Below are positions 3,948 to 12,323 of a DNA stretch of 64,000 nt, in pieces (the stretch's first letter is position 1; each line of letters begins with the position of its first letter). The notes below the pieces were generated by a model, which ran no database searches, was not told the DNA's origin, and worked only from the letters and a program-made list of their open reading frames with translations. Origin of the DNA: an uncultured Alphaproteobacteria bacterium. Its GTDB lineage: Bacteria > Pseudomonadota > Alphaproteobacteria > HIMB59 > GCA-002718135. The stretch spans positions 2,271-66,270 of the forward strand of contig CACIQI010000007.1 of assembly GCA_902588745.1 (NCBI GenBank). The letters are read 5' to 3'. The position numbers were made by a program, and so were the translations under genes.

Positions 3948-5047
3948 TGAATTTCTTTAATTAAATCATTGTATTTTTTGATTTGAATATCCCAGTTAAG
4001 TTCATTTTCTGCTCTAATTTTAGCATTTTGACCAAGTTTTAATCTGTTTTCTTTATTATCTATTAAGCTTTTTATTGCTTCATCTAATTCATCAATATCT
4101 TTTATTATTAAGCCTGTTTTATTGTGTATTACTGCTTCAGGAGTACCACCTATATTAGATGCTATTGATGGTATTTTGAAATTTGCTGCCTCTATGTAGG
4201 CTATACCAAATCCTTCAATTGATTTCGCTGAACTCTCATCTAGAGTTGGCATTATCATTAAATCAGTATTAGAGAATATATAATTTTTTTGGTTTTCATT
4301 TACTGTACCAACTAAATTTACATGATCTTGAAGATTGTATTCTTTAATTTTATTTTTAATACTATCTAGCTCGTCACCTTCACCAGCAATTATGTATTGA
4401 ATATCAGGAAAATATTTTTTTAAGTTCATTATAGATTTTAAGATTAAAGCATGACCTTTTCTCTTTTCAAGTCTTGCAAGAGTAAGTAATGTTGGTGAGC
4501 CTTGATTTAAATTTATATTTTCTTCAATATAATTTTTTTTAATATTTATACCTGGGTATATTATTTTAACATTTTTAAAATTATTACTTAATTTATTTAG
4601 TAAATTTTTCGTGTAGCTTGAATTTACTACTATTGCATTTACTTGTTCTAATATTTTTTTTACACGTTTATGATGTTTATCGTTTTTAATTATTATTTCA
4701 TTACCATGAGCTAAACTGATAACTGGTATTTTATTTTTCTTAAGAAAATCTATTGCTACTTCAAGGCTTTTCCAACTATCACTAATTACTGCATCAATTT
4801 TTGATGAAACATGTATTTTTTTAAGTTCATTAAATTTTTTTCTATTTCTTAAAAACTTTATACCTCGAAATCTTTTTGTAGAAAAATTTATTTCATTTTG
4901 ATCAAAAATATTATCTTCTTTAAAATTTTGTTGATCTGCTAATACAATTACATCTTTGAAACGACTTAGATGCAATGCTAAATTGTACATTAGGGTTTCT
5001 ATCCCTCCAACTCTTGATGGAAAACATTGTGTTAATATAATTATCAT
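3944..5047 (-). CDS. Glycosyltransferase family 4 (GT-B)
   Basis: FPSRVGGIET, LARLEKRKG, EGFGIAYIEA, GGTPEAV. Confidence 0.9.
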   Translation of the reverse strand: MIIILTQCFPSRVGGIETLMYNLALHLSRFKDVIVLADQQNFKEDNIFDQNEINFSTKRFRGIKFLRNRKKFNELKKIHVSSKIDAVISDSWKSLEVAIDFLKKNKIPVISLAHGNEIIIKNDKHHKRVKKILEQVNAIVVNSSYTKNLLNKLSNNFKNVKIIYPGINIKKNYIEENINLNQGSPTLLTLARLEKRKGHALILKSIMNLKKYFPDIQYIIAGEGDELDSIKNKIKEYNLQDHVNLVGTVNENQKNYIFSNTDLMIMPTLDESSAKSIEGFGIAYIEAANFKIPSIASNIGGTPEAVIHNKTGLIIKDIDELDEAIKSLIDNKENRLKLGQNAKIRAENELNWDIQIKKYNDLIKEIQ

Positions 5048-5068
5048 TAAAATTTAAAGAATTTAAAA

Positions 5069-6076
5069 TTACGATATATTAATATCGATTGGAGTACCTT
5101 TAGCAATTGATTCCTTCATCGCAAATACGACTCTTTCTGCTTCTAAAGCAGCCTGTAAATTTACTGCTGGTTTTTGATCAAAAACGCAATCCTCAATAAA
5201 TTTATCTAAGCCTCTCTTTAAGCACCCATCAACTTTTGAATCTATAGTTGGCCAATTAGCAATATCTGGCTTCATATAATTTGTTTCTGTTTGCATCTGC
5301 AAACCCATTGATGATCCTTCTATAATAATTGATCCTTTATCACCTATAACATGAAGTGCTGGGTCTAGTGGTTCAGGTTGATTTTTAGGCAAAACCCAAG
5401 ATGTTTCAAAGGATGCTAAACTTCCATCATCAAATTTCATGATTGCCATTACAGCATCATGCGAGTCATATTCCTTACATTCTCTAATAACTGCCTCTGC
5501 AAAAACTCTTACTGGCTTTGATTTATTAATGGACATAGTCATTTGAATATCATGAATCAAAGTTGAGGATAAAAGGTCAGTCCATGGAGCATAAATTTCA
5601 ATTCCAAACCTGTTACCCCTTCTTCGTGCAAAACAAGATACGATATTGCCAATTTCATCATTTTTAACTTTTTCTTTCATTAATTTATATCGCGGATCTT
5701 CATGAAGAATAAAATTTACAGAAATAATTTTTTTATGATCTTTTATTTTATCAACTAACTCATGTATTTTTTCCAAATTTCTACCGAGAGGTTTTTCTAG
5801 TAAAATTTTTAAACCTCTTTTTACTGACATAACAGCAGGCTCTATTCTGATTTGTTCAGGTGTAGCAATACTAATAGCATCTAATGTCTCAGTGTTTATT
5901 AATTTTGTAAAATCTTCATAAGCTTTACAATTAAATGATTGTGCAACAGAATTAACCTTTTCTTTATCAACATCACAAACAGCTACAAGCTCAGAATTAG
6001 GATTTCTAAAAAAAGCTTCTGCATGAAATGTACCAACTAGACCAGTTCCAATAACTGCAATTTTTAATTTACTCAT
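5069..6076 (-). CDS. Gfo/Idh/MocA family NAD(P)-dependent oxidoreductase
   Basis: IAVIGTGLVG Rossmann motif, IATPE, LLEKP, IHD catalytic region, FETSWVLP. Confidence 0.9.
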   Translation of the reverse strand: MSKLKIAVIGTGLVGTFHAEAFFRNPNSELVAVCDVDKEKVNSVAQSFNCKAYEDFTKLINTETLDAISIATPEQIRIEPAVMSVKRGLKILLEKPLGRNLEKIHELVDKIKDHKKIISVNFILHEDPRYKLMKEKVKNDEIGNIVSCFARRRGNRFGIEIYAPWTDLLSSTLIHDIQMTMSINKSKPVRVFAEAVIRECKEYDSHDAVMAIMKFDDGSLASFETSWVLPKNQPEPLDPALHVIGDKGSIIIEGSSMGLQMQTETNYMKPDIANWPTIDSKVDGCLKRGLDKFIEDCVFDQKPAVNLQAALEAERVVFAMKESIAKGTPIDINIS

Positions 6077-6909
6077 TATTTATCACTTCCCGATAATACT
6101 ACTTTTGTAATATATTGTTGGAAAAAAATCATTAGTATTGTGACTGGAATTAAAGTAATTATTGCTGCTGCAGCTTGTTGACCAATTTTAATGTCTATAG
6201 TGCTCCTAAACAATCCAAGAGCTACTGTAGAAATTTTCAAATTATTAGTAAATATTAAAGGTGTTAAAAATTCAACCCAAGATAAAATAAATGCAAATAT
6301 GAAGGCTGCTATTAAACCAGGTCTCAATAAAGGGAAAATGATGTGAATTAAAAGTTGTAGAGTAGAACAACCATCAATTTTTGCAGCCTCCTCCACCTCA
6401 ACAGGTAGTTTATCAATAAATGATTTTAAAATCCAAATAACAAAAGGTAATGTAAAGGCAGTATACGGAACAACTAGACTTAAAATAGTGTCATCTAGTT
6501 GATATGAAACTAATATAACAAATAAGGGAATTACAAAAAGTATTGTTGGAAGAAAATAAATAGAAATTAAAGTTCCAAGAATAATATTTTTAGCTGGTAA
6601 ATTTAATCTTGCAAGTGAGTATGATGCCGGAAAAGCTAAAATTATGCATAAAAAAGACGTGAGGAATGAAACAATAAGACTATTTTTAATACCCTCATAA
6701 ATATTAGATATATGATTAGGTTTCAAAACCTCAGCAAAATGAGTAAATATAATTTCTGTTGGAAAAAAAGACAAATTTCTAGATCTAATTATATTTTCAG
6801 GTTGTATGCTTGTTAATATTAAACCGTATAGTGGAAAAAACATTATCAAAAATACTATGAGAGCAGAAAAATAAATAAAAAAATTTTTTAGAATCAAATT
6901 TTTTTTCAT
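6076..6909 (-). CDS. Carbohydrate (CUT1) ABC transporter permease, MalG-like
   Basis: Multiple TM segments and EAA loop LPVEVEEAAKIDGCS. Confidence 0.92.
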   Translation of the reverse strand: MKKNLILKNFFIYFSALIVFLIMFFPLYGLILTSIQPENIIRSRNLSFFPTEIIFTHFAEVLKPNHISNIYEGIKNSLIVSFLTSFLCIILAFPASYSLARLNLPAKNIILGTLISIYFLPTILFVIPLFVILVSYQLDDTILSLVVPYTAFTLPFVIWILKSFIDKLPVEVEEAAKIDGCSTLQLLIHIIFPLLRPGLIAAFIFAFILSWVEFLTPLIFTNNLKISTVALGLFRSTIDIKIGQQAAAAIITLIPVTILMIFFQQYITKVVLSGSDK

Positions 6910-7835
6910 TTATTACCCCAAAAAAATTTTATTAAAAATCTTGAAATAGTTGGAATTAATACAACAGCTAAAGTAATTATTAGCAAAACATAGGCTGCTG
7001 CTGAAGCTCGGCCTAGATTAAAAGTTTCAAATGCTTCTTGATAAATAAAATAATTTAATGTTGTTGTTCCACCCCCTGGCCCCCCTCTTGTAAGAACAAA
7101 AATTGTATCAAATGATTTCATTGCTAAAACAAATTGTATCAAGAAAAGTGGTATCGCAATTGGTAACATTAAAGGAAATAAAATGTTAGAGAACCTTTGA
7201 AATACATTTGCTCCATCAACAGCAGCAGCCTCAAAAACTTCCGAGGGTAAACTTTGAAGTCCTGATAAAAAAAATAATGTCATGAAAGGAATTGCTTTCC
7301 AGATTTCAGCAATAGCTATTACATGAAGGGCTACTAATGGATCTGCTAACCAAATTTTGTAACCTGATATGACCCCTAATTGATATAATAAAGCATTTAA
7401 AAACCCAGTATCAGCATGAAACATTTGTCCCCACAGTACACCAGAAACAACAGATGGCACTGCCCACGGTAATACAATCATGACTCTTAAAAATGCTTTT
7501 CCAATAAATTTTTCATTTAAAAGAAGTGCGATCAAGAAAGAAAGTATTGTTGTACACACGCAGATCAAAAACCCGAAGTAAATAGTTCTTAAGACAGAAC
7601 TTGTAAAAAAATAATTACTTATTAAAAATTCAAAGTTTTTAAATTGAATAAATTTTTTTATTTTTAAGCGAATTATATCATATTCGGCAAAACTTATTAC
7701 AAAAGTAAATATAGCTGGATATAAATAAGTTATAAAAACTAGAATTAAAGAAGGAAGTATTAGTGTGAAAGCAAGAATTTTTTCTCTTGAAAATTTGAAT
7801 TGAGAATTACTTGGTTGATTTAAAAGATCTGTCAT
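6906..7835 (-). CDS. Carbohydrate (CUT1) ABC transporter permease, MalF-like
   Basis: LPWAVP, GLQSLPSEVFEAAAVDGA, FDTIFVLTRGGPG. Confidence 0.92.
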   Translation of the reverse strand: MTDLLNQPSNSQFKFSREKILAFTLILPSLILVFITYLYPAIFTFVISFAEYDIIRLKIKKFIQFKNFEFLISNYFFTSSVLRTIYFGFLICVCTTILSFLIALLLNEKFIGKAFLRVMIVLPWAVPSVVSGVLWGQMFHADTGFLNALLYQLGVISGYKIWLADPLVALHVIAIAEIWKAIPFMTLFFLSGLQSLPSEVFEAAAVDGANVFQRFSNILFPLMLPIAIPLFLIQFVLAMKSFDTIFVLTRGGPGGGTTTLNYFIYQEAFETFNLGRASAAAYVLLIITLAVVLIPTISRFLIKFFWGNK

Positions 7836-8568
7836 GTCCTGGAATTACAAGATCTGGTTTATAGCTTTGTGCTTTATCTAGTGATTCGTTTAATTGTTTT
7901 AAATTTGCTTCTGGATACCATCTAGAAAATTTTCTTTCACAATACTCTTCCTTTGTCATAGTTTGATCACCAGCAATTAAAATAGTTTCATCATTACTTT
8001 TAACTATAAAAGATATATGGCCATTTGTATGTCCCGGAGTGGTTATTGCATAGACATTTTCCATAATTTTTGTCTCATTATCATCTGAGATTTCAATGAT
8101 TTCTCCCATCATTGATTTTTTAGCATCTACAATTTCTTTCCCCTCAATAGCAACCATATCATCAAATTCTTTGCTTCCAATAATCCAAGGTTTATTTCTA
8201 AAATGAACAATAGAAGCTGCATGATCAGAATGTGTATGAGTAGTAGCTACTATATCGATATCTTCATATGTTAAATTTTTTGAAGCCAGTGCTCTCTTTA
8301 ATATAGAATAAAAACCGATATGATAATTACCAGGATCAACTAAAATATTTTTCTCACCTCTAATTAGTGTAGTTGAGGCTACTGGTAAAAAACCAACATT
8401 TGTATCAAAAATTGGTCCATCATCAGTAGTTACACCCATAAGCTTTTCCATCTCATCAAGTTGTTGTTCTGGATGTGAAGCAAACATATAAATTAATTCG
8501 CTATTGTGATAACTAAATCTTAAAGTTACGGGATTTATTAAAATATCAACAGTAGTATTCATTCTCAA
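7807..8568 (-). CDS. MBL-fold metallo-hydrolase
   Basis: ILVDPG, THTHSDH (HxHxDH), TPGHTNGH, IAGD, IPGHD. Confidence 0.9.
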   Translation of the reverse strand: MRMNTTVDILINPVTLRFSYHNSELIYMFASHPEQQLDEMEKLMGVTTDDGPIFDTNVGFLPVASTTLIRGEKNILVDPGNYHIGFYSILKRALASKNLTYEDIDIVATTHTHSDHAASIVHFRNKPWIIGSKEFDDMVAIEGKEIVDAKKSMMGEIIEISDDNETKIMENVYAITTPGHTNGHISFIVKSNDETILIAGDQTMTKEEYCERKFSRWYPEANLKQLNESLDKAQSYKPDLVIPGHDRSFKSTK

Positions 8569-9785
8569 ATATCTCCATTTTCAGACAGACTTTGATTAAT
8601 CCAGTCTAAGTTTTCATAATTCATAAATGAGTAGTTATAGAAGCTAAATCCTGATGCATCTTTATTAAATACTTGAAGTTGGTTTTTAAGATCTAATTGA
8701 TTAGAAACTTGTGGGAGGATTGTTCTCATTGCAGGTATCATTTCAACTTTGTTATTTAATACTTTTTTATAAACATCATATTTTTCTTTTATAAGATCTA
8801 AATCTGCAAAATAAAAAGTTGGATGAATTTCATCAATCAAGGGCAATAGAGAATTTAAATTTACACCATTTTGCCATCTCTGATTATTAGGACCAAGTGG
8901 ATATAATGGACCAAAGTCAACTAAACCAATTTTTAAATTTTTATCTTTTCGTAATTCATTGACTACCAAAGTATTGATGTTTGTGATACTTTCTTCTCTT
9001 GCCAAATAGTAATTCCAAAACTCACCATCAAGAATACTTTGAAAATCAGACCAATTCATAACTTCTTTATTTGTTTTTTGATTAAAATAATCATCTGTAG
9101 TTTTTTTAACCCAGTTTCTAATCATTTCACCATCAATATTTTTTTGCTTCAAAGTCTCTAAACATTTATTACTAAAGTTAAGTGACATAATAAAATCGAT
9201 ATCAGCTGAAAAATCTACTCCAATTACTTCATGGTGATGTCCGTGTCTTAATGGAAGATATTCAAGAGATTCAATTAGAATTTTATCAAATACACCTAGA
9301 TTTACTACATCTCTTGATAAATTTACAAAATGATCAACTACATCCGAATTAAAGGGACATAGAGAGTGTGTGATCGGATCACCCCAAGCATTATATACAG
9401 ATGTATTGGGATAATTATTTCCAATTCCAGAATTATGAGTACCAAGCATCCATGCGCATAATTTGATATTATTTTTTTTACATTGATTTGATAATTCTTC
9501 CCAAAACTGACTCCAATTCTCAGTAAGATTACTTATAGGGGATTGAAAACTATGATTATTATGCCAACTACTTGGATTGAAGTATAAAGCCCCAGGTTCA
9601 GGAAAATATATTTTTCTTTTTTTACTATGAGGTAAAAAAAACATTCCTGAGTGATAATTTACAGTAATATAAATTGCATTAAGTCCACTTCTCTTTACTG
9701 CATCAATAATTGCATCATAACCTTCATCAATTACGTCCCAGGGATAACAAAATAAGGCTAAATCTTTTTTATTCATTTTTACCAT
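8565..9785 (-). CDS. Conserved-looking hypothetical protein, probable glycoside-hydrolase-like TIM barrel (start may be 9776)
   Basis: 406-aa ORF overlapping both neighbours; motifs YPWD, NYHSG, HN, SLCP, ESLEY, HGHHHE, FYNY; the fold call is inference. Confidence 0.6.
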   Translation of the reverse strand: MVKMNKKDLALFCYPWDVIDEGYDAIIDAVKRSGLNAIYITVNYHSGMFFLPHSKKRKIYFPEPGALYFNPSSWHNNHSFQSPISNLTENWSQFWEELSNQCKKNNIKLCAWMLGTHNSGIGNNYPNTSVYNAWGDPITHSLCPFNSDVVDHFVNLSRDVVNLGVFDKILIESLEYLPLRHGHHHEVIGVDFSADIDFIMSLNFSNKCLETLKQKNIDGEMIRNWVKKTTDDYFNQKTNKEVMNWSDFQSILDGEFWNYYLAREESITNINTLVVNELRKDKNLKIGLVDFGPLYPLGPNNQRWQNGVNLNSLLPLIDEIHPTFYFADLDLIKEKYDVYKKVLNNKVEMIPAMRTILPQVSNQLDLKNQLQVFNKDASGFSFYNYSFMNYENLDWINQSLSENGDI

Positions 9786-10563
9786 TTAAAGGTTTTTTCC
9801 ATTTTGAAAAATCTTCAATAAAGTCTGAAACTTTATCTGTTATTATCTCATAAAGTTCAGTGCCTTTCTTTTTGGAAGCAAGACTTGGTGAGCCAATAAC
9901 TCCATGATCTGAAAGCTCTTTAAAGCTTGCACTTACTCCAACTGAACCGCCTGATAAAAGGTCAACTCCTGTATATGAAGATCTTTTTAATGGGTTGTCG
10001 ACAATTTTATCTTTTTTAACTATCTCCTCTTGCATATGTAACATAAGTGCTGTTTCCATTTCACATGCATGATTTATTCCACCAAGATCAGAATCTCTCC
10101 ACTCATTAATTTCTTTCATGGCAAAATCCCAATATGATGCTGTAGCTATATAAATATTTTTATCGTATTTTAACTTTTGTCCAACATTTTTAAGAATAGC
10201 AATATTGCCTCCATGCCCATTCAAAATAAGTATTCTCTCTAATTTATTTTTTACCAAACTCTCAACTATATCCAATATAACGTTTGTTAATGTTTCATCC
10301 TTAATAGAAATTGTACCAGGAAAATCCATATGATGTGGTGAATAACCTGACCAAATAACTGGTGCCACAACTGCATAAATATTCTTTTGGTGAGATTTTT
10401 TTACAGACTCATTGGCAATATTATTAACCATAAATTCATCTACTTTGAGCGGTAAATGTTTTCCATGCTGCTCGAATGCACCAAGAGGAAGAAGAACTAC
10501 CGGATCTTTATCTGATAAGTCCTTAACTTCCTCCCATGTATAATTACCCAAATTAACTTTCAT
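9769..10563 (-). CDS. Creatininase-family amidohydrolase
   Basis: LPLGAFEQHGKHLP..D, SPHHMDFPGT, NGHGGN, HACEMET. Confidence 0.93.
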   Translation of the reverse strand: MKVNLGNYTWEEVKDLSDKDPVVLLPLGAFEQHGKHLPLKVDEFMVNNIANESVKKSHQKNIYAVVAPVIWSGYSPHHMDFPGTISIKDETLTNVILDIVESLVKNKLERILILNGHGGNIAILKNVGQKLKYDKNIYIATASYWDFAMKEINEWRDSDLGGINHACEMETALMLHMQEEIVKKDKIVDNPLKRSSYTGVDLLSGGSVGVSASFKELSDHGVIGSPSLASKKKGTELYEIITDKVSDFIEDFSKWKKPLNGKNE

Positions 10564-10582
10564 AATTTGTGTATTTTATTAT

Positions 10583-11878
10583 TTATGATCTGCTCGCATT
10601 AATTTGCTTAACAGCATCATTTAAAGCATCTTTAGCACTTTTCTTTTGAGTCAATGCTAATGAAACTTCATTTGATAATAATTCAACCCATTGATTTCTA
10701 TCTGCAGAAAAACCTGCGTCTACAGGATATAGATATGAGTCTTTAATAACACCTGCCATTGATATATTTTTCAGAACATCTGGATGATCTAGAGCAGGTT
10801 CTAAAGATGGTGCCCAAGGCGACGTTGAACCTTGCAATATCTGATTGTCAGGACTTAAAGCCATTTCAATAAATTGCATTCCTGCCTCAGGATTATCTGA
10901 ATATTTAGGTATTGCTAAAAATTCTGATCCATCCACAGATGCAGAAGTTTCTAATGCAGGAAGTGGTGCTATACCACTCATCCCTTGCACTGCAGAATCT
11001 TCTGTGAAATTTGCAATTCCACTAATAAATGGCCATGTTAAGAAAAATCCTCTTTTCCCTGCCATATAGCTTGGAGATGCATCAAATACCCAAGTGTAAG
11101 TAGGCGTAGCTGGGTCAATGATTTTATCTTTATGTAAAAGATCAACCATCATATTTAAAGCTTCAACACCCGCATCACTATTCATGATCGGATCTAGATT
11201 TTCATCTAAGAAACTTCCTCCATTCGCTTGAAGTAAAGCTCCAAAAGTCCAAAAACTATGAGTACCTGCCCAAGCATCAACAATACCATATATATCATTA
11301 TCAGGATCGTTAATTTCTTTAGCAAAACGAATAAGTTCGTTCCAAGAATTTTTTGTACGATGCCAATTATTAGGCGCTTCTGTATCCAATCCTGCATTTT
11401 TAAGTAAATTTTTATTCCAGTGCAGTACTGGGCAACCAATCGTAATTGGGGCAGCATAGACTTTGCCTTTGTAAGTTGCGGCAGTTAGACTGTTTTCCAT
11501 AACGCCATTTGGTTTTAATGTATCATTTACAAAATCACTCATATCCATCAACCAACCCTTATCAGCTAAACCAGCAATTTCTGAAGCAGTCACAAATATT
11601 GCATCACCTACACTTTTTCGTGCAATATACGCTGAATTTAATTTAACAGATAGATCTGGTGTTGTTACTGTTTCTATACTTGGTGTAACACCATATTTTT
11701 CTGCATAAGCAGGAGCTAAAGCTTGCAAATAATCCATATGTGAACCAAGCAAAAGACTAACTGGTTTAGTGTTAGCAGCAAATGCATACTTCATACCAAC
11801 TTGCGATAATAGAGTACCTGCAAGAGCAGCAGAACCTGTATGGTTAATAAACTTTCTCCTAGAGATCTTTTTTTTCAT
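10583..11878 (-). CDS. Sugar-type ABC transporter substrate-binding protein with twin-arginine signal peptide
   Basis: Start moved to ATG 11878, which follows a GGAGG RBS; N-terminus MKKKISRRKFI...AFA; family-1 SBP-like body (WNKNLLKNAGL). Confidence 0.88.
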   Translation of the reverse strand: MKKKISRRKFINHTGSAALAGTLLSQVGMKYAFAANTKPVSLLLGSHMDYLQALAPAYAEKYGVTPSIETVTTPDLSVKLNSAYIARKSVGDAIFVTASEIAGLADKGWLMDMSDFVNDTLKPNGVMENSLTAATYKGKVYAAPITIGCPVLHWNKNLLKNAGLDTEAPNNWHRTKNSWNELIRFAKEINDPDNDIYGIVDAWAGTHSFWTFGALLQANGGSFLDENLDPIMNSDAGVEALNMMVDLLHKDKIIDPATPTYTWVFDASPSYMAGKRGFFLTWPFISGIANFTEDSAVQGMSGIAPLPALETSASVDGSEFLAIPKYSDNPEAGMQFIEMALSPDNQILQGSTSPWAPSLEPALDHPDVLKNISMAGVIKDSYLYPVDAGFSADRNQWVELLSNEVSLALTQKKSAKDALNDAVKQINASRS

Positions 11879-12046
11879 TTTACCCTCCATTAAAATGATT
11901 ATCAAAAGATTGAACCGTATTTAAAATATAAAGTCAATAATGAACGAATTTAATTTCTCTAATTTATTTAAACTTAAACTTTAATAGTAAAAATTAATTA
12001 AAAATCTGTATTTTTGATATTCTATAAAATTATATATATATTTCTT

Positions 12047-12065
12047 ATATGCATTTTATGCATAT
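12047..12065. promoter_or_regulatory. Palindrome containing a LysR-type T-N11-A box
   Basis: ATATGCAT-TTT-ATGCATAT, a perfect 8-bp inverted repeat in the divergent intergenic region. Confidence 0.55.
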
Positions 12066-12133
12066 CAAAATTCAGAAATTTATACTGTTATTGCATATAA
12101 AAGTTATTATATAAAACATGAAAGGAATTTTAT

Positions 12134-12310
12134 ATGATTAATGTTTTTAATTTTTTTAACAAAGTATATGAAGATTTAAGTGAGAAAAACTACAATAGTG
12201 ATCAGGATTTAATAAAATATTTTAAATCTGAATATGGAAAGGAATGGAAAATAGAATTAGATAAACATCTTTTAAAAACTGAATTTGATATAAATAAGAA
12301 AGCCGCATAA
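12134..12310 (+). CDS. Small hypothetical protein (58 aa), absent from the ORF track
   Basis: AAAGGA RBS at 12121, ATG at 12134, MINVFNFFNKVYEDLSEKNYNSDQDLIKYFKSEYGKEWKIELDKHLLKTEFDINKKAA*, terminator at the stop. Confidence 0.7.
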   Translation: MINVFNFFNKVYEDLSEKNYNSDQDLIKYFKSEYGKEWKIELDKHLLKTEFDINKKAA

Positions 12311-12320
12311 TCGGCGGCTT
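12300..12320. terminator. GC-rich hairpin, probable bidirectional intrinsic terminator
   Basis: AAGCCGC-ATAATCG-GCGGCTT between the convergent small ORF and the aminopeptidase P gene. Confidence 0.65.
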
Positions 12321-12323
12321 AAC

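Follow-up and report, generated by a model that had tools for sequence, protein, structure and literature searches.

Described systems related to the locus

Among the described systems, the ong pathway of Pseudoalteromonas prydzensis degrades C1-oxidised chitin products, and acts on GlcNAc-GlcNAc1A with a glycosidase, a deacetylase, a fold-type-III PLP deaminase and RidA, according to its published account (Jiang et al. 2022, PMC9537276). By that account, the pathway is non-phosphorylative, its glycosidase is dedicated to an amino-sugar disaccharide, an N-acetyl-amino-aldonic acid is de-N-acetylated, deamination is PLP-dependent and assisted by RidA, and a 2-keto-3-deoxy acid is the end product; the route proposed below for a seven-gene cassette of an uncultured alphaproteobacterium would share these features. 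Moreover, RidA adjoins the cassette in 9 of 42 loci, and a trio of OngC-like, RidA and amidohydrolase genes lies elsewhere in this genome. However, no cassette protein shares homology with the ong protein in the corresponding role: a GHL10-like barrel stands in place of the GH20 glycosidase, a creatininase-family amide hydrolase in place of the D-aminoacylase, and a CUT1 ABC importer in place of TonB-dependent receptors and an SSS symporter. In addition, the cassette contains a dehydrogenase and a lactonase-like enzyme, both missing from ong, and has no KDG kinase.

The glycosidase-like protein of the cassette, of 406 amino acids (U406), resembles Cwp19 of Clostridioides difficile (GHL10) and the C-terminal domain of PgaB/BpsB (GH153); all are barrels without the catalytic Glu of strand 7, a loss also described in the Cwp19 paper. 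The substrates of the two known enzymes are polymers that contain GlcNAc. These enzymes are secreted and polymer-acting, whereas U406 is cytoplasmic, single-domain and encoded in a small-molecule import operon.

A Gfo/Idh/MocA dehydrogenase, a creatininase-family hydrolase and an ABC importer are also combined in the myo-inositol route of Thermotoga maritima (IolG, IolM, IolN, IolO). Partial matches to the IolN and IolG models are found in the cassette, but that route includes neither a glycosidase-type barrel nor a metallo-beta-lactamase-fold (MBL) enzyme, and the cassette loci show no IolM- or IolO-type genes. Finally, non-phosphorylative sugar oxidation routes (1-dehydrogenase, lactonase, dehydratase, aldolase or diketo-hydrolase) have the pair of dehydrogenase and lactonase-like enzyme in common with the cassette; RraA- or HpaI-type aldolases, an SDR and a FAH-family hydrolase adjoin the cassette or its paralogues. 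Differently from these routes, the cassette also encodes a glycosidase-like enzyme and an amide hydrolase and is linked to PLP enzymes and RidA, which implies a nitrogen-bearing glycoside rather than a free neutral sugar.

Organization and insertion of the cassette

The window analysed is a stretch of 64,000 nucleotides, in which the following features were identified.

10583..11878, minus strand: CUT1-type periplasmic solute-binding protein (SBP); Pfam SBP_bac_1, 119.5 bits
9769..10563, minus strand: creatininase-family metal amidohydrolase (CRE); Pfam PF02633, 225.7 bits, full length
8565..9785, minus strand: U406, glycoside-hydrolase-like (beta/alpha)8 barrel by predicted structure; no Pfam or NCBIfam match
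7807..8568, minus strand: MBL-fold metallo-hydrolase; Pfam Lactamase_B, 61.6 bits
6906..7835, minus strand: ABC permease 1, UgpA/MalF-like; BPD_transp_1, 62.2 bits
6076..6909, minus strand: ABC permease 2, GlcU/MalG-like; BPD_transp_1, 70.3 bits
5069..6076, minus strand: Gfo/Idh/MocA NAD(P)-dependent dehydrogenase; PF01408 (GFO_IDH_MocA), 89.3 bits, plus C-terminal domains
11879..12323, minus strand: upstream intergenic region, with the hairpin terminator of M24 (12320..12300) and a palindrome, TATGCA-N-TGCATA (12046..12070)
5048..5068, minus strand: 21-bp gap from the dehydrogenase stop to where the native GT4 glycosyltransferase gene starts; right-hand insertion junction

In the ORF listing of the window, the seven genes share one orientation and are packed with overlaps or gaps of at most 19 bp, in the order SBP, CRE, U406, MBL, the two permeases and the dehydrogenase; a 19-bp gap after the SBP gene is followed by overlaps of 17, 4, 29, 4 and 1 bp. 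The co-oriented, packed arrangement given in the initial annotation is thus confirmed, 5069-11878 running from the dehydrogenase stop to the SBP ATG. No regulator gene was found in the upstream region and no terminator-like site in 5048..5068; a deaminase, an aldolase, a kinase, a regulator and an ATPase are all missing from the window's cassette, which counts against the degradation route proposed below. Seawater RNA libraries, one from each of four studies, yielded contigs with an identity of at least 95% that lie on all seven genes and span five gene junctions, and a single metatranscriptome contig (X5 record 17, 4900-5244) spans the gap 5048..5068; such contigs are no proof of transcription.

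U406 was found in 1 of 36 genomes drawn from the same genus and in none of 24 from the sister family. The cassette is a 6.9-kb insertion: in five of five same-genus genomes devoid of it, M24 directly adjoins GT4, with identical synteny in all other respects. Immediately after the M24 gene, some 300 bp are common to the empty site of the relatives. In the explanation favoured here, the cassette is a self-contained, horizontally mobile catabolic unit.

Conservation and recurrent neighbours

Homologues of all seven genes are clustered in 29 of 34 genome loci, which excludes a chance arrangement and bears out the idea of a single conserved unit of transporter and enzymes. As to the other five, three (L025, L031, L034) end at contig edges, L030 has no separate MBL call and L022 carries only a partial CRE with U406 and MBL. 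A lack of co-localisation of the four enzymes in other genomes had been named in the initial annotation as a reason to abandon its proposal; they do co-localise, and the proposal therefore holds on this point.

By record title, the 34 loci belong to Alphaproteobacteria, Trueperaceae, Actinomycetota, Bacillota and Armatimonadota, and the mobile cassette occurs in no fewer than five bacterial phyla. Since the titles also name freshwater, soil and thermophile genomes and Bifidobacterium, the substrate is not specifically marine, contrary to what had been supposed. Four gene orders occur, with CRE-U406-MBL remaining contiguous and in fixed order; among 42 non-redundant loci, the gene immediately preceding U406 is CRE in 29 and the one immediately following it is MBL in 31. 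Only in this lineage, at 12 of the 34 loci, are the hydrolases nested between the SBP and its permeases. No published description of the cassette was found in the literature searched, and the equivalog scores of its proteins against NCBIfam are all far under the cut-offs, so that no characterised pathway matches, in line with the earlier remark that the gene combination was not recognised as a described pathway.

Genes recurring beside the 42 loci code for M81 hydrolases (18), MalK (9), RidA (9), IclR (7), HemL-like class-III aminotransferases (7), RraA-like proteins (6) and FAH hydrolases (3); an FAH-family hydrolase beside the cassette or its paralogues matches 2,4-didehydro-3-deoxy-L-rhamnonate hydrolase best (224.6 bits, cut-off 500). 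An M81 gene is absent from the window's own cassette. A paralogue subfamily of U406, 26-28% identical to it, is always found downstream of a PRK09237 deacetylase (413 bits, cut-off 371), in a context including NagB (343 bits, cut-off 326), a NagA-like protein, a Gfo/Idh/MocA protein plus an Amidohydro_2 enzyme, a D-serine-dehydratase-like protein, an RraA-like protein, dehydratases of the enolase and UxuA types and an SDR: this neighbourhood is the same chemistry performed by unrelated enzymes.

In the genome of the window, contig C4 carries OngC-like, RidA and NagA-like genes together with genes for a glucose-1-dehydrogenase-type SDR, an aldolase of the HpaI type and an RraA-like protein, the latter 70% identical to the RraA-like protein adjoining the cassette in L012. 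The OngC-like gene occurs in 6 of 7 cassette-bearing versus 5 of 35 cassette-negative genomes of the genus, a count made on close kin and incomplete genomes (55-89% complete); the one cassette genome without a C4-type match and the five cassette-negative genomes with one speak against the explanation favoured here. Taken together, the recurrent neighbours, the paralogue context of NagA, NagB and OngC-like genes and the ong-like cluster on C4 suggest the oxidative breakdown of an N-acetylated amino-sugar glycoside.

Proposed degradation route

The cassette probably burns a nitrogen-containing sugar via an oxidative route, and the general oxidation and hydrolysis of such a sugar put forward in the initial annotation fit the evidence. 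As a whole, our best explanation, a mobile cassette importing and degrading an N-acetylated amino-sugar glycoside, is tentative and has somewhat less than an even chance of being right. Around the observed gene content, conservation, insertion, fold and intact metal sites, we infer a substrate class, an enzyme order and enzyme roles as follows. A small glycoside, probably of disaccharide size, would be imported by the Tat-exported CUT1 SBP and the two permeases, with energy probably supplied by a MalK-type ATPase whose gene lies elsewhere in the genome, and degraded by the four cytoplasmic enzymes. The likeliest substrate class would be an N-acetylated amino-sugar glycoside, for example from chitin or another N-acetylhexosamine polymer, possibly C1-oxidised beforehand. 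U406 would use E172 as its only catalytic acid to cut the glycosidic bond, in the manner of the GlcNAc-polymer enzymes Cwp19 and PgaB or else by substrate assistance; the dehydrogenase would oxidise the freed reducing sugar at C1 to a lactone, MBL would open the lactone to an aldonic acid and CRE would take off the N-acyl group, leaving a 2-amino-2-deoxy-aldonic acid. This compound may then be deaminated and split by enzymes that the core cassette does not encode: in other phyla, the HemL-like aminotransferase, RidA, RraA-like aldolase and M81 hydrolase adjoining the cassette; in this genome, possibly the C4 cluster with its PLP deaminase of fold type III, its RidA and its aldolase of the HpaI type. 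No cassette enzyme reaches an equivalog cut-off and the roles are therefore assigned by family and context only, which counts against the scheme, as does M81, the commonest accessory, which has no clear place in it.

The barrel protein U406

No match to U406 was found in Pfam or NCBIfam. Its AF2 model (pLDDT 94.8) is a (beta/alpha)8 barrel and, together with the structural matches, bears out the earlier description of the protein as TIM-barrel-like. The closest folds are Cwp19 (Z 26.9) and PgaB/BpsB GH153 (Z 23-24.5), aligned over ~300-320 residues at 12-14% identity, followed by GH42, GH35, GH14 and GH20; Foldseek against 4p7q gave E 6.5e-12. The family is large (1997 representatives), its profile found none of the solved-structure sequences, and 19 of 36 members show GHL10 matches under threshold, with a faint DUF4015 signal too. 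U406 is cytoplasmic, has a barrel of glycosidase type and founds an undescribed family. E172 is invariant at the end of strand 4, and strand 7 ends in an invariant R354 instead of Glu.

The top match to Cwp19, a peptidoglycan-cleaving lytic transglycosylase, would agree with a peptidoglycan fragment as substrate (GlcNAc-MurNAc with or without stem peptide, or a related glycopeptide), available in all habitats of the cassette carriers as judged from record titles; CRE and the frequent M81 hydrolases, among which microcystinase MlrC alone has been named, would strip peptide or acyl groups, and aminotransferase and RidA would dispose of the amino acids. We consider this explanation, including these roles, unlikely. 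The fold by itself does not fix the substrate, since U406 reaches Z 20-25 with many unrelated glycosidase families; the window's cassette has no M81, aminotransferase or etherase gene, and no cassette gene accounts for the lactyl ether. The dehydrogenase and lactonase pair plays no part in known muropeptide recycling, and we know of no CUT1 system carrying muropeptides.

A different reading of U406 comes from H181, H184, H185 and E186 in its RHGHHHE loop, invariant in both subfamilies despite their 26-28% identity. This is unusual for a glycosidase and a point against the preferred scheme; to our knowledge, the loop is a described feature of neither Cwp19 nor PgaB/BpsB. It could indicate metal-dependent chemistry other than glycoside hydrolysis: U406, devoid of the strand-7 nucleophile, would be an isomerase, lyase or hydrolase acting on an open-chain or acid intermediate from CRE and MBL, the substrate being some other lactone- and amide-bearing compound taken up by a sugar-type importer. 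The fixed position of the barrel between two metal hydrolases suggests consecutive steps on one intermediate. Nevertheless, all fold matches are glycoside hydrolases or lytic transglycosylases, the faint sequence signals are GHL10 and DUF4015, and the loop block 181-190 is modelled with lower confidence (pLDDT 70), and metal binding is putative; we give this reading, substrate included, a small chance.

Metal hydrolases and dehydrogenase

In the amino-sugar scheme preferred here, CRE is proposed as a de-N-acylase, MBL as a sugar-lactone hydrolase and the dehydrogenase as a sugar C1 dehydrogenase. Seven residues of CRE (E31, H33, D42, H117, H165, E168, E170) are invariant in 22 orthologues, and in MBL the motif H111-x-H113-x-D115-H116 with H180, D201 and H245 is invariant in 25; both metal-ligand sets are complete. 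CRE forms a distinct subfamily, reaching none of the NCBIfam cut-offs for MftE (134.7 bits, cut-off 172), creatininase (121.6, cut-off 235) or IolN (85.9, cut-off 245), and we know of no creatininase-family enzyme that deacetylates sugars, which speaks against its role in the scheme. The best NCBIfam match of MBL is the lactonase AiiA (58.5 bits, cut-off 375). The dehydrogenase is likewise under cut-off for IolG (131.4, cut-off 355) and UDP-GlcNAc 3-dehydrogenase (128.5, cut-off 450); that these best partial matches are inositol 2- and UDP-GlcNAc 3-dehydrogenases, and not C1 enzymes, is a point against the scheme.

One member of the creatininase family is IolN, the 3-dehydro-scyllo-inosose hydrolase of Thermotoga. 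In a route along the lines of the initial annotation, the dehydrogenase would oxidise an (amino)cyclitol or modified sugar, CRE would open the ring as an IolN-type C-C hydrolase, and MBL and the barrel would process the open chain. Indeed, CRE aligns with the IolN model over its full length (E 2.5e-24), the best NCBIfam and PDB matches of the dehydrogenase are inositol dehydrogenases (closest solved structure 3cea, a myo-inositol dehydrogenase, E 2.7e-18), and the HemL-like aminotransferase adjoining many cassettes could take the amine off an aminocyclitol. However, the IolN and IolG scores above fall far short and the MftE and creatininase models outscore IolN; the glycosidase-type barrel, the best-conserved member of the cassette, is left without a role, and annotated loci show no IolM-, IolO- or IolE-type genes. 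Both the neighbours (M81, HemL-like aminotransferase, RidA, RraA-like) and the genes around the paralogues (NagA, NagB, deacetylase, D-serine-dehydratase-like) suggest amino-aldonic acids and N-acetyl amino sugars; the paralogue context does not consist of inositol genes, and the cyclitol reading, like ring hydrolysis of the IolN type, finds no support; we regard this route as rather improbable.

Transporter

The closest solved relative of the SBP is the trehalose/maltose-binding protein 1eu8 (E 1.4e-27), which binds neutral disaccharides, a point against the amino-sugar scheme. Described 3-keto routes use a xylose-isomerase-type eliminase. For a neutral disaccharide, a 3-keto-glycoside route resembling thu, which serves trehalose, maltose and sucrose, with C3 oxidation by the dehydrogenase and cleavage and processing by the barrel and the two metal hydrolases, agrees with this relative and with the glycoside 3-dehydrogenases among Gfo/Idh/MocA enzymes, but is quite improbable, since the 3-dehydrogenase models match far under cut-off (50.7 bits for the BT_2159 family, 60.3 bits for levoglucosan dehydrogenase), no such eliminase was seen in the annotated loci, and a neutral sugar leaves unexplained the recurrent aminotransferase, RidA, M81 and amide hydrolase and the NagA/NagB/deacetylase context of the paralogues.

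Against NCBIfam, the SBP reaches no equivalog, permease 1 scores 134.5 bits with UgpA (cut-off 335) and permease 2 scores 93 bits with GlcU (cut-off 340). The SBP ORF is listed from a TTG at 11905 (11905..10583); its true start is likely the ATG at 11878, which is preceded by GGAGGG, and the signal sequence is Tat-like (SRRKF).

Layout of the cassette and assignment of its products

The cassette comprises seven genes on the minus strand, which are listed below with the evidence on which each call rests.

Genes of the cassette
11905..10583, minus strand: CUT1 solute-binding protein (SBP), ORF call; the ATG at 11878, behind GGAGGG, is the likely true start
10563..9769, minus strand: creatininase-family protein (CRE), ORF call and Pfam
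9785..8565, minus strand: protein of 406 aa (U406), ORF call, with neither a Pfam nor an NCBIfam match
8568..7807, minus strand: MBL hydrolase, ORF call and Pfam
7835..6906, minus strand: permease 1, ORF call and Pfam
6909..6076, minus strand: permease 2, ORF call and Pfam
6076..5069, minus strand: Gfo/Idh/MocA dehydrogenase, ORF call and Pfam

From the SBP gene to the dehydrogenase gene, the spacings are +19, -17, -4, -29, -4 and -1 bp. Pfam searches bear out each of the families named in the initial annotation, and none of the seven proteins reaches an NCBIfam equivalog cut-off. The nearest solved structures are all distant: a trehalose/maltose-binding protein for SBP (1.4e-27), creatinine amidohydrolase for CRE (1.9e-21) and myo-inositol dehydrogenase for the dehydrogenase (2.7e-18). 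The importer belongs to the CUT1 type, with an SBP_bac_1 match of 119.5 bits and two BPD_transp_1 matches in Pfam, and its proteins give partial NCBIfam matches to UgpA, MalF, GlcU and MalG. SBP has a Tat-like leader (SRRKF), and an N-terminal signal peptide is absent from the sequences of U406, CRE, MBL and the dehydrogenase. No MalK-type ABC ATPase gene is found between 5069 and 11905; genes of this type occur elsewhere in the same genome, the best being 52% identical (C8:39030-40094, on another contig). The dehydrogenase matches PF01408 (89.3 bits), PF22725 (51.3) and PF02894 (45.2), which correspond to an N-terminal Rossmann and a C-terminal alpha/beta domain, and scores 131.4 bits against the IolG (inositol 2-dehydrogenase) equivalog, the cut-off of which is 355. 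The cassette is a binding-protein-dependent catabolic operon around an undescribed enzyme family.

The U406 family

U406 is the founder of a family of about 2000 sequence clusters for which there is neither a Pfam model nor a solved structure. A word-indexed search retrieved 159 relatives at E <= 1e-3, all unnamed or hypothetical apart from the source name DUF4015 on one of them, and a profile search of a library of 1.84 billion representatives gave 1997 hits at E <= 1e-3 and 561 at E <= 1e-30. The protein of the window has no match to Pfam GHL10; among 36 members of the family, GHL10 is found in 19 at E <= 1, in nine at E <= 1e-3 and in one above the cut-off, and a single member reaches the DUF4015 cut-off; by sequence, the U406 family is only faintly linked to GHL10. 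A feature search of the ESM Atlas returned unnamed clusters only, with GHL10/DUF4015 clusters at scores of 0.90-0.93, to be taken as a lead only.

Against solved structures, the single sequence gave one hit (E 0.52) and a profile of 88 sequences gave one designed repeat protein (8etq, E 1.9e-4), aligned over five low-scoring repeat stretches. The next two profile hits were discarded, their alignments beginning at an N-terminal His-tag, as were the remaining ones, which begin at chain residues 1-4 and are probably also caused by tags.

The AlphaFold2 model built from the 88 sequences is a (beta/alpha)8 barrel predicted with high confidence (pLDDT 94.8, pTM 0.93). In the PDB, Foldseek places the C-terminal domain of PgaB first (E 6.5e-12, TM 0.60), ahead of beta-amylase, Cwp19 and GH35 galactosidases; sequence identity to each of these is about 12%. 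An all-against-all comparison gives the following matches.

Structural matches of the U406 model in the all-against-all comparison
Cwp19 (5oq2): Z 26.9, rmsd 3.5 over 300 residues
GH29-type fucosidase: Z 25.4
BpsB/PgaB, GH153: Z 24.5 (6au1) and 23.2
GH42, GH35, GH14, GH20 and GH5: Z 17-22

In clan-A glycosidases the acid/base sits at the strand-4 position. In the model of U406, E172 is the last residue of strand 4 (168-172) and R354 that of strand 7 (352-354), and both residues are invariant, even in a distant subfamily that is only 26-28% identical. The model combines a barrel superposable on Cwp19 and PgaB with a strand-4 acid and no strand-7 Glu; the Cwp19 structure paper reports that the strand-7 Glu is replaced also in that protein. 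From this geometry we infer that E172 would be the catalytic residue. The loop H181-x-x-H184-H185-E186 is likewise invariant in both subfamilies.

The creatininase-family and MBL hydrolases

CRE is a member of the Creatininase family PF02633 (225.7 bits against a cut-off of 31.3), its residues 7-249 covering positions 2-238 of the 238 of the profile, and it stays under the cut-off of every equivalog compared: MftE (134.7/172), creatininase (121.6/235), IolN (85.9/245) and ArfB (31/180). Residues E31, H33, D42, H117, H165, E168 and E170, which we take to be the equivalents of the binuclear metal ligands of creatinine amidohydrolase, are unchanged across 22 orthologues. The MBL protein matches PF00753 (61.6 bits, cut-off 22.7), and its HxHxDH motif (H111, H113, D115, H116) together with H180, D201 and H245 is unchanged across 25 orthologues. 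Its nearest solved structures are AiiA proteins, only at an E-value of about 3e-9 (2.8e-9), and it scores 58.5 bits against the AiiA-type N-acyl-homoserine lactonase equivalog, far from the cut-off of 375. With metal sites that seem intact, both hydrolases look active. Complex prediction for CRE, MBL and U406 scored 0.00, the mark being 0.32, a result that neither favours nor disfavours binding.

Distribution and gene order

The survey used one genome per species and mapped the window proteins onto all ORFs of the resulting 34 loci. The full seven-gene set is found together in 29 of them. Three incomplete loci (L025, L031 and L034) are cut by contig ends, and a fourth, from Solirubrobacteraceae (L030), has no separate MBL call. 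In the latter the ORF matching U406 (7230-9944) extends over 905 codons, and it may represent either a U406-MBL fusion or an over-long ORF call in GC-rich DNA. On a Trueperaceae chromosome (L022, 7552-9969), a short or partial creatininase-like ORF, U406 and MBL occur with no transporter or dehydrogenase nearby, indicating that the hydrolase trio can exist apart from the importer; the genes that flank it here encode a radical SAM CofH/MqnC-like protein, an amidohydrolase and a thioredoxin.

By record titles the carriers belong to at least five phyla and include marine, freshwater, soil and thermophile genomes. The titles name marine Alphaproteobacteria (genomes from single cells and metagenomes); Paracoccaceae with further Rhodobacterales, and Roseitalea, Mesorhizobium and Pelagibacterium; Trueperaceae; Rubrobacter, Solirubrobacteraceae, Planktophila and Bifidobacterium; Cohnella and Limnochordales; and Armatimonadota. 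Cultured carriers among them are Mesorhizobium sp. YM1C-6-2, Pelagibacterium montanilacus, Rubrobacter taiwanensis and a Cohnella sp. Four gene orders are found, and the creatininase-U406-MBL run is kept in all. The initial annotation had drawn attention to the nesting of the hydrolase genes between the SBP gene and its permeases; this arrangement is real in the window but is not general, being confined to 12 of the 34 loci, all from marine Alphaproteobacteria. When the 34 genome loci are pooled with 76 metagenome loci and reduced to 42 non-redundant loci of the main family, the gene immediately upstream of U406 is creatininase-like in 29 and the one immediately downstream is MBL in 31, most exceptions being contig ends or antisense ORFs chosen by a crude ORF picker in GC-rich DNA.

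The insertion site

Among genomes of the same genus, U406 was found in one of 36 drawn (55-89% complete), and it was found in none of 24 from the sister family. In five of five same-genus genomes that lack the cassette, the genes for the M24 aminopeptidase and the GT4 glycosyltransferase, which flank the cassette in the window, are direct neighbours about 390 bp apart, with identical surrounding synteny. Alignment of the junctions reveals that roughly the first 300 bp behind M24 are common to the window and to the empty sites, and that a 6.9-kb block lies directly upstream of the GT4 start, with 21 bp separating the dehydrogenase stop from GT4. In this genus the cassette is an insertion, and as an accessory island it is mobile even in an ocean bacterium with a streamlined genome of 1.5 Mb. 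The M24, threonine-dehydratase-like, GT4 and GhrA-like genes were considered as pathway parts and rejected: they are mutually adjacent, in the same synteny, in relatives without the cassette, and are therefore outside the unit.

The cassette of the window brings no regulator gene, and no terminator-like site was found between the dehydrogenase gene and GT4. A scan of each junction region on its own found no direct repeats; short A/T-rich similarity, to which no significance was assigned, is visible at both junctions. GC content is about 0.23-0.34 over the first 20 kb of the window and is no marker of the island: the cassette has 0.27-0.34, which among the flanks is equalled only on the DapD/DapE side (0.31-0.34), GT4/GhrA (0.23-0.25) and M24 (0.25-0.28) having lower values. 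A promoter scan gave 44 promoter-like sites against 60.6 expected and is uninformative in such AT-rich DNA.

12046-12070, intergenic, upstream of the SBP gene: palindrome of the type TATATGCATTTTATGCATATCAAAA, core ATGCA-N-TGCAT

The relatives carry this palindrome in their empty sites too, and it is therefore native to the region upstream of GT4; it may be an operator in front of which no foreign gene originally lay and behind which the cassette has come to lie.

Recurrent neighbours and a paralogous subfamily

In the 42 non-redundant loci several other genes recur beside the cassette; their counts are lower bounds, many contigs being short.

Recurrent neighbours of the cassette (42 loci)
M81 (MlrC-like) hydrolase: 18
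MalK ATPase: 9
RidA: 9
IclR regulator, with best partial matches to BhcR, PcaR/PcaU and KdgR: 7
Class-III aminotransferase closest to glutamate-1-semialdehyde aminomutase: 7
RraA-like aldolase: 6
FAH-family hydrolase: 3
SDR: 3

M81 is present in nine of the 15 loci in which all core genes are called.

The distant U406 subfamily is found in 16 metagenome loci (L107, L109, L111-L120, L122, L124, L127 and L128; for example, L109 9989-11167). E172, R354 and the H181/H184/H185/E186 loop are conserved in it, D290 and E319 are not. A PRK09237-type deacetylase gene precedes it in all 12 loci that cover the upstream flank. Two settings are observed: in the first the neighbours are NagB (above cut-off), a NagA-like protein, an SDR and a divergent set of Amidohydro_2, Gfo/Idh/MocA, CUT1 transporter and D-serine-dehydratase-like genes; in the second they are an RraA-like protein, two enolase-superfamily dehydratases, D-serine-dehydratase-like and UxuA-like proteins, an SDR and DUF2961. 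These are enzyme types of N-acetyl-amino-sugar and amino-aldonic-acid catabolism. The paralogue contexts parallel the cassette by function with unrelated proteins, i.e. a dehydrogenase with a lactonase-type hydrolase, an amide hydrolase, a PLP enzyme with RidA, and a pyruvate aldolase.

Putative amino-sugar-acid genes elsewhere in the genome

The same logic is known from the characterised ong pathway of Pseudoalteromonas prydzensis for LPMO-oxidised chitin, which relies on a special GH20 glycosidase acting on GlcNAc-GlcNAc1A, a deacetylase of the D-aminoacylase type, a PLP deaminase of fold type III, a RidA protein, which is essential, and KDG kinase (Jiang et al. 2022, PMC9537276). The likeness is one of logic and not of membership: ong consists of the GH20 OngA, the D-aminoacylase-type OngB, the PLP enzyme OngC, the RidA protein OngD, KdgK and an SSS transporter, whereas the cassette contains none of these families.

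On another contig of the window's own genome, tblastn with the accessory proteins, together with annotation, revealed a cluster at C4:18857-27700 (locus L129, 4855-13696). It contains an RraA-like gene that shares 70% identity with the one adjoining the cassette in another locus (L012), two Gfo/Idh/MocA genes, an aldolase of the HpaI/GarL type, SDRs, among them one of the glucose-1-dehydrogenase type, and a NagA-like amidohydrolase; a D-serine-dehydratase-like (OngC-like) PLP gene stands back to back with RidA, and two BNR sialidase-like genes and an MFS transporter follow. Its gene content marks it as a putative ong-like, kinase-free amino-sugar-acid cluster. The OngC-like gene is accessory in the genus (6/36 drawn genomes). 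It is found in six of seven cassette-bearing genomes (the window's own, G014, and four of the five reached via L004, L005, L007, L009 and L011) and in five of the 35 cassette-negative genomes of the genus draw, all counts referring to genomes that are close kin and incomplete; this co-occurrence lends weak support to an amino-sugar substrate.

Ten kb beyond this cluster (C4:38187-43519; L130, 4188-9519), an M81 MlrC-like hydrolase and a HemL-like class-III aminotransferase gene lie tail to tail with overlapping 3' ends, next to NanK, NanE and NanA of sialic acid catabolism and to a Dpp/Opp-type (peptide-type) ABC system. Since this pair also accompanies the cassette in other phyla, it may be a module of its own.

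Proposed pathway and alternative readings

On the established ground of conservation, insertion and fold, and with metal sites that look intact, we infer a route in which a small N-acetylated amino-sugar glycoside would be imported and cleaved by U406; the dehydrogenase would then oxidise C1, the MBL enzyme would open the lactone and the creatininase-family enzyme would de-N-acylate the product, leaving deamination and subsequent aldol cleavage to enzymes outside the core. This mechanism as a whole is tentative, and we rate it at slightly below even chances. Against it stand the equivalog scores, every one far under its cut-off, an M81 gene without a clear role, and the fact that a deaminase and an aldolase are absent from the cassette of the window.

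Four rival readings, each of lower probability, meet parts of the same evidence. The cyclitol route of the initial annotation could appeal to the myo-inositol dehydrogenase structure nearest to the dehydrogenase, and the IolG and IolN scores both lie under their cut-offs. A neutral disaccharide degraded by a 3-keto route would suit the nearest relative of SBP, which binds a neutral sugar and so counts against the amino-sugar reading; the deacetylase and NagB neighbours of the subfamily point to amino sugars. The substrate could also be a peptidoglycan fragment, for which the structural proximity of U406 to Cwp19 might be cited. Finally, the barrel might have a role other than that of a glycosidase, as the His-rich loop, unexplained in the amino-sugar reading, could suggest; the model superposes on glycosidase barrels.

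Within the amino-sugar reading, a more specific proposal can be made, which we consider improbable as it stands: the U406 family would be a new cytoplasmic, possibly metal-assisted glycosidase class for amino-sugar disaccharides ending in an aldonic acid or lactone, such as LPMO-made chitobionic acid, and the cassette would be the missing ABC-importer route for oxidised chitin. If so, non-chitinolytic streamlined plankton would scavenge oxidised chitin, as would freshwater acI-type actinobacteria and soil and thermophilic bacteria, and both halves of the disaccharide would enter one oxidative, kinase-free pathway, the Gfo/Idh/MocA dehydrogenase and the MBL lactonase oxidising the released GlcNAc so that the two halves yield one and the same acid. 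The broader amino-sugar reading, if true, would reveal how oligotrophs gain part of the chitin-type or cell-wall-type nitrogen and carbon without secreted enzymes. Once the substrate is identified, a catabolic pathway would be added to those known, and probably also a new glycoside-hydrolase family. Automated transporter labels (maltose, trehalose, generic sugar), taken from the nearest relatives, probably mis-state what these organisms consume. No description of the gene combination was found in the literature, the coverage being that outside subscription journals; the present analysis adds the paralogue contexts, the strand-4/strand-7 layout, the ong-like cluster in the same genome and the presence in RNA libraries.

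Presence in RNA libraries

Of the sampled words of the stretch, 25-35% occur in 14 metatranscriptome runs from seawater or other marine sources, and four runs from four studies yield contigs at least 95% identical on all seven cassette genes. Five junctions within the cassette are spanned by such contigs (SBP/creatininase, creatininase/U406, U406/MBL, MBL/permease and permease/dehydrogenase), and a single contig spans the one between dehydrogenase and GT4; contigs in RNA libraries are no proof of transcription, and stretches of the cassette left uncovered in a given run carry no meaning either. Depth is highest over the SBP gene, a value from which no expression ranking is drawn, as depth cannot rank genes. 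In three runs, each from a different study (X1, X3 and X8), contigs end at 11877 or 11865, where they run into sequencing adapter, and the next bin upstream is uncovered in X1 and X8. This hints weakly that a transcript may end at the annotated SBP start or slightly inside it.
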